Positions 47,905-50,804 are shown, counted from the stretch's first letter. The stretch is 64,000 nucleotides of DNA from an uncultured Gammaproteobacteria bacterium (GCA_964588955.1 CAZPQJ010000001.1:93572-157571), one strand, 5' to 3'. The notes: generated from the letters alone by a model not told the origin. A program made the numbers and translations.

Positions 47905-49650
47905 TTATGTGTCGATCGGTCGCGTAAACAACAACGCGTCGGGGAGGCGGAAGAGCCCCTCGTCGTTTTGTTTTTGTTCCAGGAAGTGAGAGATGAAGCC
48001 GACGGTGCGGGGAATAATGAAGAAGGCGTTGAAGAATTCGGCTTCGGCAAGGGCGCGCAGCTGGTCGGTGGACAAGTCTTCGCAGACGGACAAGATGTCG
48101 AGGAGTAAAGCGGCGATCACGCCATCGACATTGAGAATGAGGGAGCCGGATTTGCCTGTGGTGATTGTTTCGACGGCGCGCGCGAAGTCGTAATGGGGGT
48201 GCGTTGGCAGTTGGTCGACGAAAGCGGAGAGAGCTAAGACACGCGGATCGGGGAGGCCGAGACGATACTTTTTGTGGCCAATCCCGGCAATCAAACGCCC
48301 GGCGTTATTTTCGGTTTCCACAAAGGCGGCGGCGTCCATTCCAGAGGCAACGGCATTGAGCCAAGCCGAGGCGGCGGTGTTGACCGCTCCGCCAAAACGT
48401 GGACCAATCGTGAGAAGTCCCGTAGCCAGTGAGGAGACCATGTCTTTACCGGCACGCGCGGTGATCATGGTGTTTACGGCTCCGGAAACGTTGCCGCCGT
48501 GGTCAATAAGTAAGGAGAAAACGTGCTCGGTAAATGCGGTGGTGAGGGGTGAGGTGATCGGTCGACCAAGCAAAGCAGACAAAGCATTGGTCACGAACGG
48601 CCGGCTAGCGACGGCATCAAGATCGATCACTTGTCGGGTGGAGAGGATGCTTGGGTTGCGACTGGTAAGTTCGTCAGCGGAGGTGTTCATAGAAGGGAGA
48701 GGAGTTGCGGGAAGATTTTTTAACGCGGCGAGGAATTCGGGGAAGGTGTCGGGCGCAACGACGCCGGCTTCGCGTAAGGCTTGGCGTTTGGCTCGTGCAC
48801 TTTCATCCTTGTGACCCACAAACGCCTTGGCATGTCCGAATTGCACATGTTCGGTGAAGGCCTCATCAATGATGCCGGCGACGTAGGCGATGATCGGTTT
48901 GGTAAAACGTTTTGTCTTAATGAGATCGATGATCTCGTATTCATCCACACCACCGAGTTCGCCAAAGTACACAAAGGCGTGTGTTTCTGGATCCGCTTCG
49001 GCCAGTTCAAATAACTTCGTCAGGGACAAAACAGGGAATCGATCACCGCCCACCGCCGCGGCAAAGGAGATGCGTTTTCCCGCCGCCGTGACGGCGTGGA
49101 TAAGTTCGTTGGTCATGCCTCCCGAGGTGGATCCAACAGCAATGTTCCCAATCTTTGTTAGGTTGGTGCGCGTGATTTGCTGTGGATCGATCCCGCCGAT
49201 CGCCCCAAGTTTGAGAGCGCCAGGAACAAGCAAACCAACGCCAGAGGGACCAACCAATAGATAGCGTTCGCTAAAGCGTTTGATGAGTTCGCAAGCATGT
49301 GCTTCTGGAACACCTTCGGCAAAGATGTGTCCACCAAGGGCGTTTGGGAAGCGCTCAAAAAACGCTTTGGTGGTCGTAAGGACGCGTCGACCCGATTGCA
49401 GGTTCAGCATCCACTGCGCGCGTTCTGATTGTTCCGCGTTCAGCGCTTCAATAGACGGCAAGCAAGGGATCAAAACCTCTTTTGTTCCAAAAAAGAACTT
49501 TTCGGCTTTGCGATTACTGGTAATTATGGCAATAATCGAGGCGGGGCGTTGGCAAAGATAATCAAAATCCAAGATCGACTGAATAATCGACTTATGATGG
49601 CCGATCACGAGAATTCCCGTTGATGGGGTTTTGCGAATAGAGTCGATCAT
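47905..49650 (-). CDS. aclA: ATP-citrate lyase large subunit (CoA-binding/phosphohistidine domain plus citrate-synthase-like domain)
   Basis: Aligns closely with human ACLY residues ~500-1100: ILDFDYLC (MLDFDYVC), catalytic His box VQFGHAKAFVGHKDESARAKRQALREAGV ([28 protein letters not shown]), DHGGNVSGAVNTMITARAGKDMVSSLATGLLTIGPRFGGA, and LILNVDGVIA. Confidence 0.85.
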   Translation of the reverse strand: MIDSIRKTPSTGILVIGHHKSIIQSILDFDYLCQRPASIIAIITSNRKAEKFFFGTKEVLIPCLPSIEALNAEQSERAQWMLNLQSGRRVLTTTKAFFERFPNALGGHIFAEGVPEAHACELIKRFSERYLLVGPSGVGLLVPGALKLGAIGGIDPQQITRTNLTKIGNIAVGSTSGGMTNELIHAVTAAGKRISFAAAVGGDRFPVLSLTKLFELAEADPETHAFVYFGELGGVDEYEIIDLIKTKRFTKPIIAYVAGIIDEAFTEHVQFGHAKAFVGHKDESARAKRQALREAGVVAPDTFPEFLAALKNLPATPLPSMNTSADELTSRNPSILSTRQVIDLDAVASRPFVTNALSALLGRPITSPLTTAFTEHVFSLLIDHGGNVSGAVNTMITARAGKDMVSSLATGLLTIGPRFGGAVNTAASAWLNAVASGMDAAAFVETENNAGRLIAGIGHKKYRLGLPDPRVLALSAFVDQLPTHPHYDFARAVETITTGKSGSLILNVDGVIAALLLDILSVCEDLSTDQLRALAEAEFFNAFFIIPRTVGFISHFLEQKQNDEGLFRLPDALLFTRPIDT

Positions 49651-50804
49651 AGCTGTTTACTGTACGTTACGGCATCGCTGACCGCTTGGGTAATCACTGC
49701 CTCGGATCCATGGACAGATCCGAGTAAATTTTCATTGGTAAGGAATGTGCGCATGCGTTCTAATCCGCGCGCTTCATTGGGTCCGCCACGACGCACAAAG
49801 ACGCGTACCTCAGCGGATCGCAGCGCGTCGGCTTTTTCACTCAGCGCGTCGATGAGTCCGTCAAAGGTCGTCGCCACGTCGGTGAAGTTCGCCACCCCGC
49901 CGGCGATGATCAACGCTTTTTTAGGCGCTGTCGAAGCCAACAAAAGACCAATGACTTCCCGTGCGTACAAATGCGTTTCTTCGCGACTCGGTCCGCCGCT
50001 GTATTCTCCGTAGTTGCCAATTTGGTCGCTCATCCCTTGCGCGGCGGCTTCATCGGCAATGACAATGCTTCCGCCCCCTCCAGAGAGGAGGAAGAACAGG
50101 GAACCATTGGGGTTCATGACGGTGAGTTTGAGGGAGGCTGGGGTTGATTGTTGTAAGGCGCGCACGTGTTCCTCTGCCGCCGTGTTTGTCTGCGAGGCGA
50201 TGAGATCAGCTTCTGTCCATGCGCCATGCACAAAGAACGCCCCCGCGTTGTCGACCAGAACGGCAGCGTCGAGAAGGTGAGCAATGTCGTTTTTGATTAC
50301 CAGCGGATTGATTTCCAAAAAGGAAAAAAAGTTTGTGTTGAAGGCTTGCAACAAATGCGTCAGCAGGTCGATGGGGAGACCTGTTGTTTGCGCAATGGAA
50401 GCGAGGTCCGCGTCTTCGCGTACGACAAAGGATTGCATCGCTTCCGGATGCGCTTCCACGTCGACGCCGCCGTCTATGGCAAACAAGAGGCGAATTCCGT
50501 CACGTACGCGTTCGAGCGAAAGATAACGTTCGTCCGCCGACGAGTGTTCGACAAATGGTTCAGCCAGAAAGTTTGTGAATCCGCGCTCCGTCCATTCGCC
50601 CATTTTAGTAACAAAGCTGTCGGGGGCAATATCAACCGCTACCAGTCCTTGCTTGAAACGCTTTTTGATTCCTTGATCGACTTTCAACACCCAGCGTCCA
50701 CTTGTCGGCAGATCCGTCGAATCAAGCGTCAAAGCAATCCCTTTGTAAGTGTCGCCGAGGAGGAGTTGTTTAGCTTTATGTTCTGTGATGCGTACGCGTG
50801 GCAT
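49647..50804 (-). CDS. aclB: ATP-citrate lyase small subunit (ATP-grasp)
   Basis: Aligns with the ACLY N-terminus: WVLKVDQGIKKRFKQGLV, FLAEPFVEHSSADERYL, FLEINPLVI, ASLKLTVMNPNGSLFFLLSGGGGSIV..NYGEYSGGPSRE, LIIAGGVANFTDVATTFDGL and VFVRRGGPNEARGL. Overlaps aclA by 4 nt. Confidence 0.85.
   Translation of the reverse strand: MPRVRITEHKAKQLLLGDTYKGIALTLDSTDLPTSGRWVLKVDQGIKKRFKQGLVAVDIAPDSFVTKMGEWTERGFTNFLAEPFVEHSSADERYLSLERVRDGIRLLFAIDGGVDVEAHPEAMQSFVVREDADLASIAQTTGLPIDLLTHLLQAFNTNFFSFLEINPLVIKNDIAHLLDAAVLVDNAGAFFVHGAWTEADLIASQTNTAAEEHVRALQQSTPASLKLTVMNPNGSLFFLLSGGGGSIVIADEAAAQGMSDQIGNYGEYSGGPSREETHLYAREVIGLLLASTAPKKALIIAGGVANFTDVATTFDGLIDALSEKADALRSAEVRVFVRRGGPNEARGLERMRTFLTNENLLGSVHGSEAVITQAVSDAVTYSKQL

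Follow-up and report, generated by a model that had tools for sequence, protein, structure and literature searches.

ATP-citrate lyase genes in the window

The analyzed stretch of DNA (64,000 nt; GCA_964588955.1, CAZPQJ010000001.1:93572-157571; hereafter the window), listed under an uncultured Gammaproteobacteria bacterium, contains two minus-strand genes that are predicted to encode the small and the large subunit of an ATP-citrate lyase (ACL) resembling the human enzyme ACLY (Table 1). The two open reading frames (ORFs) share a 4-nt overlap (ATGA). As aclB denotes the small and aclA the large subunit in Chlorobium, and the names are reversed in plants and Methanothrix concilii, the terms “small” and “large” are used here instead. 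The small subunit is equivalent to Chlorobium AclB, plant ACLA and residues 1-425 of human ACLY, and the large subunit to Chlorobium AclA, plant ACLB and human residues 487-1101.

The small subunit matched the Pfam families Citrate_bind (PF16114, E-value 6e-51) and ATP-citrate synthase ATP-grasp (PF24948, 6.1e-25, 88.4 bits with a cutoff of 83). In the large subunit, a CoA-binding/CoA-ligase domain that carries the phosphohistidine loop (PF00549, Ligase_CoA; 1e-11) is fused within one ORF to a citrate-synthase-homology (CSH) domain, also called the CCL domain (PF00285, Citrate_synt; 3.5e-23). In searches against the sequences of the Protein Data Bank (PDB), residues 35-376 of the small subunit aligned with human ACLY 52-416 (E-value 2.5e-54), and residues 12-307 and 371-570 of the large subunit aligned with human 498-794 and 887-1087, respectively (1.5e-91). 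The unaligned parts were limited to the inter-domain linker of the large subunit (residues 308-370) and the ~34 N-terminal residues of the small one. BLAST identity to human ACLY was 34.5% for the small subunit, 34.6% for the CoA-ligase part and 44.7% for the CSH part. The match to ACL cannot come from chance. An initial annotation, made from the sequence alone, had described two overlapping minus-strand genes that match human ACLY along their whole length, including the phosphohistidine loop QFGHAKA. The genes are located exactly where it had placed them, the alignment is nearly whole-length, and the loop occupies large-subunit residues 270-276. Its further statement that the pair closely resembles eukaryotic ACLY held only in part: the large subunit is closer to the human enzyme than to Chlorobiaceae ACL (30.8% identity), but no closer to it than to the ACLs of the DPANN and Saccharibacteria type (~35.5%).

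We weighed whether the pair might instead be a succinyl-CoA synthetase (SCS), a citryl-CoA synthetase (CCS) acting with a separate citryl-CoA lyase (CCL), or a decayed pseudo-enzyme. These readings draw on the automatic NCBI names of homologues (“citrate/2-methylcitrate synthase” or “hypothetical protein”) and on weak NCBIfam matches to SCS and CCL models. However, the matches to the NCBIfam models for SCS, CCL and citrate synthase (CS) were all far under the cutoffs (for example, 99.8 bits versus 336), and the PDB ranking placed ACL far ahead of SCS, followed by CCS and CCL. For the large subunit, the E-values were 1.5e-91 for human ACLY, 4.8e-87 for M. concilii ACLY-B and 1.2e-61 for Chlorobium limicola, compared to 1e-21 for the SCS alpha subunit, 1e-15 for the CCS small subunit and 6e-9 for CCL. 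The small subunit gave 2.5e-54, 2.6e-52 (M. concilii ACLY-A) and 4.8e-31 for the same three ACLs and 7.5e-7 for the CCS large subunit. The ACL-specific citrate-binding domain is present, both ORFs are intact, and the catalytic residues are conserved across 120 homologues. The initial annotation had also offered a citryl-CoA synthetase/lyase pair as an option, which is excluded because the CoA-ligase and CSH domains are fused in one ORF. Two tests of the assignment had been set beforehand, namely a placement with SCS or CCS and a loss of the catalytic histidine or of citrate-binding residues, and both outcomes favour ACL. Hence, domain architecture, score ranking and residue conservation rule out the SCS, CCS/CCL and pseudo-enzyme readings, to which we assign a negligible probability, and confirm that the two genes, as judged from their sequences, should encode a genuine two-subunit ACLY-like ACL.

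Active-site residues and a clade-specific signature

Residues were mapped by using the printed PDB alignments and a MAFFT alignment of 120 close large-subunit homologues. In human ACLY, the catalytic centre has been assigned to G281-283, S308, E599, S663, G664-665 and H760 (PMC11365397), and roles have been described for F347, E599, H900, R976, D1026 and R1065 (PMC10115795). The small subunit retains G242-244 (human G281-283), S269 (S308) and F307 (F347). In the CoA-ligase domain of the large subunit, E112, S176, G177, G178, D203, R204 and E231 correspond to human E599, S663, G664, G665, D690, R691 and E718, and H273 corresponds to the phosphohistidine H760. In the CSH domain, H384, H459, D509 and R548 correspond to H900, H975, D1026 and R1065. 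The only one of the residues with described roles that differs is R976, which is K460 in the window protein and R, K or L among homologues from the candidate phyla radiation (CPR). We take G309, N346, T348 and R379 to be the citrate-binding residues of human ACLY, presumably as given by Sun et al. 2010; all four are kept in the small subunit, as G270, N306, T308 and R339. The mapped catalytic positions of the large subunit are invariant or nearly invariant among the 120 close CPR homologues. With unbroken reading frames and with catalytic residues that are kept and hardly vary across these homologues, the ACL pair looks fully functional.

Three departures from human ACLY were observed in the large subunit, and each of them occurs in 120 of 120 homologues: T175 replaces R662, K275 replaces G762, and V392 replaces H908. 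Across the family, position 662 is basic (R/K) and position 762 is Gly in nearly all ACLs, including the human, Chlorobiaceae, DPANN and Saccharibacteria-type enzymes and most fused forms, and only a few divergent representatives deviate, P0190, P0175 and P0196 among them. In contrast, a CPR clade with 100% support that includes the window protein has T, S, A or C at position 662 and K at position 762, with P0143 (V, G) as the sole exception. We infer that the exchanges at positions 662 and 762 may represent a coupled, compensated relocation of positive charge around the phosphohistidine pocket. Apart from this clade-specific signature (STSGG, GHAKA), the enzyme is a further ACL and not a new kind of system.

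Host, distribution and phylogeny

The sequence data identify the host as a Paceibacteria-type CPR (Patescibacteria) bacterium. The initial annotation had suspected a small-genome bacterium without visible genes of the tricarboxylic acid (TCA) cycle in the window, and both points agree with our data: the close homologues all stem from metagenome-assembled genomes (MAGs) of Patescibacteria/Paceibacteria, and the ~55 other genes of the window are housekeeping genes with none of the TCA cycle among them. They include genes for ScpAB, ParAB, RelA, TopA, DprA, Pth, Der, LytR, LepB, HisRS, FtsA/FtsZ, NrdR, HtrA and pyruvate kinase. In the 64-kb window we found no genes for pyruvate ferredoxin oxidoreductase (PFOR), pyruvate dehydrogenase (PDH), acetyl-CoA synthetase (ACS) or Pta/Ack, and none for 2-oxoglutarate ferredoxin oxidoreductase (OGOR), fumarate reductase, aconitase or isocitrate dehydrogenase (IDH). 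Base composition gave no sign of a recent transfer of the ACL genes, as the GC content of the bin 48001-50000 was 0.545, compared to 0.49-0.55 elsewhere outside a low-GC region at 60-64 kb.

The best 120 database matches to the large subunit were all 60-68% identical, plus one at 98%, and those with a taxonomic name belonged to Patescibacteria, Paceibacterota, Kaiserbacteria and Liptonbacteria; several are already called “ATP citrate (pro-S)-lyase” in IMG. Pairs with 59-68% identity occur in >120 database clusters and in 29 species genomes. A scan of one genome per GTDB species yielded 33 loci, of which 29 were of the Paceibacteria type and contained both ACL genes. Overall, ACL forms a compact family with only 131 representatives below an E-value of 1e-30 (50% clustering, 1.84 billion proteins). 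The initial annotation had regarded ACL as restricted to autotrophs that use the reductive TCA (rTCA) cycle and hence as unexpected in this genome. This was overstated, because homologous pairs are widespread in Patescibacteria, where some already bear the name ACL, and they also occur in other CPR clades and in DPANN. One locus stands apart as an observation in its own right: L029:7175-11752 (Roizmanbacteria) has the most divergent CPR pair (44% identity), with the large subunit split into ORFs of 309 and 266 aa, ~1.7 kb with other ORFs between the large and the small subunit, and no adjacent GNAT-fold acetyltransferase gene; it may be a decaying or rearranged copy.

The phylogenetic tree was calculated by neighbour joining from 62 sequences and 575 columns with 100 bootstraps, and its deep nodes are weak. 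The window protein fell into a Paceibacteria clade with 100% support, which is nested in a wider clade, also with 100% support, that includes Dojkabacteria (P0142; 46.6% identity to the window protein). Adjoining this CPR clade are split-type ACLs, among them a cluster with a Saccharibacteria-named member (P0159) and a DPANN sequence from a Norongarragalinales archaeon (P0157). Identities of the window protein to the Saccharibacteria-type and DPANN sequences and to P0154 were ~35.5%. The Chlorobiaceae representative (P0205) formed a distant long branch. These relationships suggest that the ACL of the window belongs to the ACLY-like branch and not to the rTCA branch of Chlorobium. Given the weak support of the deep nodes, no particular sister-group placement relative to eukaryotes is claimed.

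ACL is the usual marker gene of the rTCA cycle in metagenome surveys (for example, PMC12930757), and a cryptic rTCA cycle or autotrophy was among the options of the initial annotation. Our data do not support it: the pair shares only 31% identity with the Chlorobium type and lies on a different branch, OGOR, PFOR, fumarate reductase, aconitase and IDH are missing from the window, and the conserved neighbours of the ACL genes across loci are acetyltransferase and housekeeping genes rather than TCA genes. Moreover, the host genomes are reduced, symbiont-type CPR genomes. The rTCA reading was thus rejected on the lack of supporting genes in the window and on the different tree branch, and we judge it very improbable. 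A genuine, citrate-cleaving ACL outside the rTCA cycle is, in our assessment, the likely identity of the pair. This matters for carbon-cycle inference from ACL as a marker gene, since CPR and DPANN carriers that have no TCA cycle would falsely be counted among the autotrophs.

Previous mentions of such enzymes are brief. One sentence lists aclAB among the genes enriched in MAGs of Saccharimonadia, a CPR group (PMC12577380). Sequences from CPR and DPANN that bear SCS or CS annotations grouped with citrate-cleavage enzymes (preprint 10.1101/2022.10.25.513756), and eukaryotic ACLA/B were placed beside DPANN and ACLY beside Thermoplasmatota-E3 (PMC11976288). Beyond such passing mentions, our searches of the literature on ACL (CPR, Parcubacteria, Paceibacteria, Saccharibacteria) and on GlmU (CPR) returned nothing, and no analysis of the role of ACL in CPR bacteria was found. 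The CPR ACL family is thus known to databases and functionally unexplored.

Acetyltransferase genes beside ACL

A gene for a GNAT-fold acetyltransferase abuts the ACL genes in the window and, according to scans with hidden Markov models, in all 29 Paceibacteria-type species loci. Most of the gaps between the GNAT and ACL genes in these loci are 4-16 nt. Two GNAT families take this position. The g192 family (~190-200 aa), to which the window gene belongs, was found in 17 of the 29 loci, 16 times directly upstream of the small subunit and once 30 nt downstream of the large subunit. The c7 family (~142-154 aa) was found upstream in the other 12 loci, with gaps of 4-16 nt. No further copies of g192 or c7 were detected within +/-10 kb of the 29 loci, and the outer neighbours vary by locus (UvrB, PRPP synthetase, a peptidase-like protein, CofD and others). 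The two families have only the generic GNAT motif in common, and they are interspersed within ACL clades of 99-100% support: L016 and L017 (g192) group with L018 and L025 (c7), and L007, L009 and L023 (g192) with L014 (c7). The slot beside ACL has therefore been refilled repeatedly. On a more distant 66-kb CPR contig (L034:4040-10839), a hexapeptide-repeat (LbH) acetyltransferase lies directly upstream of the small subunit, in the order DegT-aminotransferase/GFO-IDH-MocA fusion, hexapeptide-repeat acetyltransferase, ACL small subunit, ACL large subunit and NAD-epimerase, and the flanks, part of a glycan-biosynthesis cluster, encode glycosyltransferases, methyltransferases and a flippase. Altogether, three unrelated types of acetyl-CoA-dependent acetyltransferases (g192, c7 and LbH) occupy the position next to ACL.

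Beyond these loci, the surroundings of ACL differ. In the DPANN loci L036:4240-13325 and L037 (Norongarragalinales), ACL is followed by a class I/II aminotransferase, an AsnC regulator, a Lyase_1 protein (fumarase/aspartase family) and a gene of the OTCase/ATCase family, which suggests that the oxaloacetate half of the reaction may feed aspartate metabolism there. NUDIX and methyltransferase genes lie beside ACL in the Saccharibacteria loci L038/39, and the archaeal locus L040 has POR near ACL.

The association of g192 reaches beyond ACL. In a metagenome scan with the g192 alignment, glmS, the gene of glutamine--fructose-6-phosphate aminotransferase, was located directly upstream of g192 in 11 of 28 loci (gap 5-134 nt) and within 2.5 kb in four more, aclA was directly downstream in nine, and six loci had neither of the two. 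All three genes occur together in the window, L001 and L046. So g192 is a hub that links GlmS, the source of glucosamine-6-phosphate (GlcN-6-P), with ACL, the source of acetyl-CoA. The locus L053:2322-7879 comprises TrmB-glmS-GNAT(g192)-YvcK-HAD followed by a 227-aa sugar nucleotidyltransferase without an LbH domain. This protein aligns only to the uridyltransferase part of Escherichia coli GlmU (residues 6-86) and is too short for the LbH acetyltransferase domain, and the locus looks like a GlmU-independent gene set for UDP-N-acetylglucosamine (UDP-GlcNAc). Several further g192 loci have the order glmS-GNAT-epimerase-aminotransferase. When E. coli GlmU was searched against 866 kb of CPR DNA with tblastn, only the isolated LbH protein of L034 and the isolated nucleotidyltransferase of L053 were retrieved, in a sample too small to infer an absence of GlmU. 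In a single case (L056:2550-5534), g192 lies directly downstream of a gene for phosphoketolase (XFP, 792 aa), which makes acetyl-phosphate, with neither glmS nor ACL beside it.

The GNAT protein of the window has the GNAT fold with the acetyl-CoA-binding motif, and no particular resemblance to GNA1 enzymes of known function was found in its sequence or structure. Among the matches of the c7 profile in the PDB are GlcN6P N-acetyltransferases (3t90, 1e-12; 4ag7, 2huz, 1i12 and 2vez, ~1e-7 to 1e-8). The top match, 6yug, is labelled “Diamine acetyltransferase”; it may be a Cryptosporidium GNA1, and we did not rely on it. A different function would follow if ACL were a general source of acetyl-CoA and oxaloacetate and the GNAT protein, being Pat/Rim-like, controlled ACL, GlmS or other proteins by acetylating them. 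Rv0998 and PAT are indeed among the best Foldseek matches of the GNAT protein, and IMG assigns one homologue to the “RimJ/RimL family”. Pat enzymes also regulate acyl-CoA synthetases and are themselves fusions with an NDP-forming acyl-CoA-synthetase-like domain, which belongs to the ACL superfamily, and the clade-invariant Lys two residues past the phosphohistidine would be a conceivable acetylation target. However, 12 species have the different and shorter c7 protein with its matches to GlcN6P N-acetyltransferases, in L034 the slot holds a sugar-type LbH acetyltransferase within a glycan cluster, and the K275 signature is also present in CPR ACLs without an adjacent GNAT gene (P0147 cluster, L042). 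Protein acetylation is therefore, in our view, an unlikely function of these enzymes, albeit one to keep in mind.

The gene run of the window

The ACL genes are the last two of a co-directional minus-strand run of seven genes, trmB-HAD-glmS-yvcK-GNAT-aclSmall-aclLarge, with junctions of +3, +26, -8, -4, +1 and -4 nt from trmB to the large subunit (Table 1). The glmS gene is 82% identical to that of L001, where the gene order is the same. The yvcK gene lies between glmS and GNAT also in L001 and L046 and beside GNAT in L024, L044, L045 and L053; the name of its NCBIfam model TIGR01826 is “UDP-N-acetylglucosamine-binding protein YvcK”. Homologues of the HAD gene adjoin CofD/GNAT in L024, L045, L053, L060 and L062, and a TrmB gene precedes glmS-GNAT in L053 and is located two genes upstream of aclAB in L035. 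A sigma-70-like consensus match upstream of trmB is a candidate promoter for the seven-gene run, and terminator-like matches inside the run did not exceed those in shuffled sequences.

Table 1 Predicted genes and sequence motifs of the ACL-containing gene run in the window.
Feature	Position	Strand	Description
ACL large subunit	47905..49650	(-)	581 aa; Pfam PF00549 + PF00285
Phosphohistidine loop VQFGHAKA	48823..48846	(-)	large-subunit residues 269-276; H273 = human H760; K275 for G762
Loop STSGG	49117..49131	(-)	large-subunit residues 174-178 = human S661-R662-S663-G664-G665; T175 for basic residue
ACL small subunit	49647..50804	(-)	385 aa; Pfam PF24948 + PF16114
VRRGGPN motif, small subunit	49776-49796	(-)	= human R379
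ANFT motif, small subunit	49881-49892	(-)	= human N346/F347/T348
NYGEYSG motif, small subunit	49995-50015	(-)	= human S308/G309
SGGGG motif, small subunit	50070-50084	(-)	= human G281-283
GNAT-fold acetyltransferase, g192 family	50806..51384	(-)	192 aa; stop codon 1 nt before small-subunit ATG
YvcK/GlmR-like, CofD family	51381..52376	(-)	331 aa; PF01933 6.8e-66; TIGR01826 220 bits (cutoff 196)
GlmS, glutamine--fructose-6-phosphate aminotransferase	52369..54207	(-)	612 aa; Pfam SIS, GATase_6/7; makes GlcN-6-P
HAD-superfamily hydrolase-like	54234..54821	(-)	195 aa; weak PF00702 match 4.7e-4
TrmB-family (sugar-sensing type) regulator	54825..55574	(-)	PF01978 2.3e-15; first gene of run
Sigma-70-like promoter match	55590..55618	(-)	TTGACA-17-TATCAT, 11/12; directly upstream of trmB; consensus match only

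Proposed role of ACL

From the gene context we propose, with a probability of roughly one half, that ACL supplies acetyl-CoA for the N-acetylation of amino sugars in a symbiont without a TCA cycle. The enzyme would convert citrate, ATP and CoA to acetyl-CoA, oxaloacetate, ADP and Pi through the canonical mechanism, in which phospho-His273 would lead to citryl-phosphate and then to citryl-CoA. Citrate would presumably be scavenged from the host or the environment. If the run is co-transcribed, acetyl-CoA would be made on site for the co-encoded acetyltransferase, which most likely N-acetylates GlcN-6-P, as made by GlmS, or an amino sugar close to it. The output of the module would be an N-acetylated hexosamine for UDP-GlcNAc and envelope glycans, derived from fructose-6-phosphate, glutamine and citrate. 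The by-product oxaloacetate probably enters malate, pyruvate or aspartate, the last of these being hinted at by the aminotransferase gene next to ACL in the DPANN loci. YvcK/GlmR-type proteins modulate GlmS, and the TrmB-type regulator would couple the run to the sugar status of the cell. ACL spends one ATP to keep the thioester and is therefore worthwhile only if acetyl-CoA itself is needed. The proposal also presumes that the genome lacks other acetyl-CoA sources. We know of no fatty-acid synthesis in CPR bacteria; acetylations would therefore be the main or obvious sink of acetyl-CoA. Among the three options offered by the initial annotation, acetyl-CoA formation from imported citrate is the one that the gene context favours.

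Some observations weigh against this proposal. Several of the more distant CPR and DPANN loci have no adjacent acetyltransferase gene, and glmS is not near in most of the ACL-linked loci. The c7 profile matches polyamine and streptothricin acetyltransferases about as well as GNA1 enzymes. No citrate transporter was seen in the 64-kb window. The negative results on acetyl-CoA sources and TCA genes likewise cover these 64 kb, and such genes, as well as a canonical GlmU, may lie elsewhere in the genome. The trees, finally, are neighbour-joining trees with weak deep nodes.

The enzyme might also run in reverse, as an ATP-conserving citrate synthase that serves substrate-level phosphorylation or a route to 2-oxoglutarate and glutamate in a fermentative cell. 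The ACL reaction is close to equilibrium, and Moller et al. are said to have reported the reverse direction in Desulfobacter postgatei in 1987. All residues for reversible chemistry are present in the window pair, and the mutant ACLY-D1026A forms citryl-CoA from the products (PMC10115795). Reverse operation would, however, leave the strict pairing with acetyl-CoA-consuming acetyltransferases unexplained, and the window contains no acetyl-CoA-producing enzyme, aconitase or isocitrate dehydrogenase. In addition, CPR bacteria, to our knowledge, generally lack a TCA cycle. We therefore consider net citrate synthesis by this ACL improbable.

In its broadest form, the supply of acetyl-CoA for amino-sugar acetylation would mean that Paceibacteria-type CPR bacteria recruited an ACLY-like ACL as a dedicated, operon-encoded acetyl-CoA generator, with the arrangement glmS-(yvcK)-GNAT-ACL and interchangeable acetyltransferases. 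We put this forward tentatively and consider it less likely than not. If it holds, prokaryotes would have, in this module, an equivalent of the eukaryotic route from citrate through ACLY, cytosolic acetyl-CoA and GNA1 to UDP-GlcNAc. The module would stand in for the acetyltransferase half of GlmU and make cell-wall synthesis dependent on host-derived citrate, which would define a concrete metabolite dependency of episymbiotic CPR bacteria and a bacterial way to UDP-GlcNAc that does without GlmU. It would also provide a bacterial example of “eukaryote-style” ACL use outside the rTCA cycle, which bears on the debate about the origin of eukaryotic ACLA/B and ACLY. The strict, operon-like coupling of ACL with an acetyltransferase and, via GNAT, with GlmS is new as far as our literature searches show, and it turns the question of why a TCA-less symbiont carries ACL into a hypothesis that is directly testable with two recombinant enzymes.

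Other features of the window

Several features of the window lie apart from the ACL run. At 26752-28659, 28644-38528 and 38516-40112, a 635-aa ORF is followed by a 3294-aa ORF, both with a T4SS-pilin-like N-terminal segment followed by Ig-like domains (Big_5, TIG, Big_7), and two bacterial TSP3-repeat proteins come next. This region (26752-40112) resembles the clusters of giant adhesins, surface-exposed or pilus-associated, that are typical of episymbiotic CPR bacteria. At 60001-62900, the GC content drops from ~0.52 to 0.41 over ~60-62 kb, with a tRNA-Asp gene (62823-62900) closing the stretch. The ORFs of this stretch at 60483-61301 and 61344-62681 had no Pfam or PHROG match, and the stretch is possibly an island of integrated or foreign DNA. 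None of the unannotated ORFs of the window, in the low-GC region or elsewhere, matched PHROGs. A 394-aa ORF at 57187-58371, downstream of genes for a SAM methyltransferase and a pseudouridine synthase, showed a weak ATP-grasp_3 match (5e-5) and may encode an uncharacterised ATP-grasp ligase. A compact tRNA cluster is located at 8274-8763, with two tRNA-Met(CAT) genes on opposite strands either side of a tRNA-Leu(CAA) gene.

Comparison with known systems

The best PDB matches of the window pair, human ACLY (6hxh, 6uuz) and the ACL of Methanothrix (Methanosaeta) concilii (6hxi/6znw), have the same domain order, and the latter is split into two subunits at the same point. The catalytic and citrate-binding residues are all common to the three enzymes, although the window pair is only ~35-45% identical to the other two. 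Its small subunit is ~35-40 residues shorter (385 aa versus 421-425), the linker that joins its CoA-ligase and CSH domains has 63 aa instead of ~92, and the human regulatory linker 426-486 has no counterpart. Unlike both enzymes, it carries the exchanges R662 to T, G762 to K and H908 to V, and its genes are located in an operon-like run with an acetyltransferase gene. CCS and CCL of Hydrogenobacter thermophilus (6hxq, 6hxp) and SCS belong to the same superfamily and have the ATP-grasp and CoA-ligase domains and the phosphohistidine chemistry in common with it. In contrast to the window ACL, the CCS/CCL system has its lyase as a separate protein and no PF16114-type match, and the scores are far weaker.

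The nearest relatives in the tree, the Saccharibacteria-named P0159 cluster, Dojkabacteria P0142 and Norongarragalinales P0157, are likewise split-type ACLs of small-genome symbionts without an evident rTCA context. These other CPR and DPANN ACLs are 35-47% identical to the window protein, and, unlike it, the majority have retained a basic residue at 662 together with Gly at 762. Their gene neighbours differ as well and comprise either NUDIX and methyltransferase genes, or an aminotransferase with Lyase_1 and OTCase, or POR, or, in a glycan cluster, an LbH acetyltransferase. AclBA of Chlorobium limicola and other Chlorobiaceae (6hxj, P0205) has the same small-then-large gene order and the same chemistry; however, it is more distant (30.8% in the large subunit), forms a separate long branch and works in the complete rTCA cycle of autotrophs.

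The proposed role in CPR bacteria can be likened to that of plant and fungal ACLA/ACLB, a two-subunit ACL outside the rTCA cycle that forms acetyl-CoA from citrate. For plants, the supply of cytosolic acetyl-CoA by heteromeric ACL was reportedly described by Fatland et al. in 2002. ACLY is the main nucleocytosolic source of acetyl-CoA (PMC10115795). The suggested coupling of GlmS to GNAT, with the presumed amino-sugar substrate of the latter, would mirror the eukaryotic hexosamine pathway, in which GFAT is followed by GNA1. Unlike in eukaryotes, the host is a bacterium, the genes are physically clustered, and citrate would come from the host or the environment rather than from a mitochondrion.

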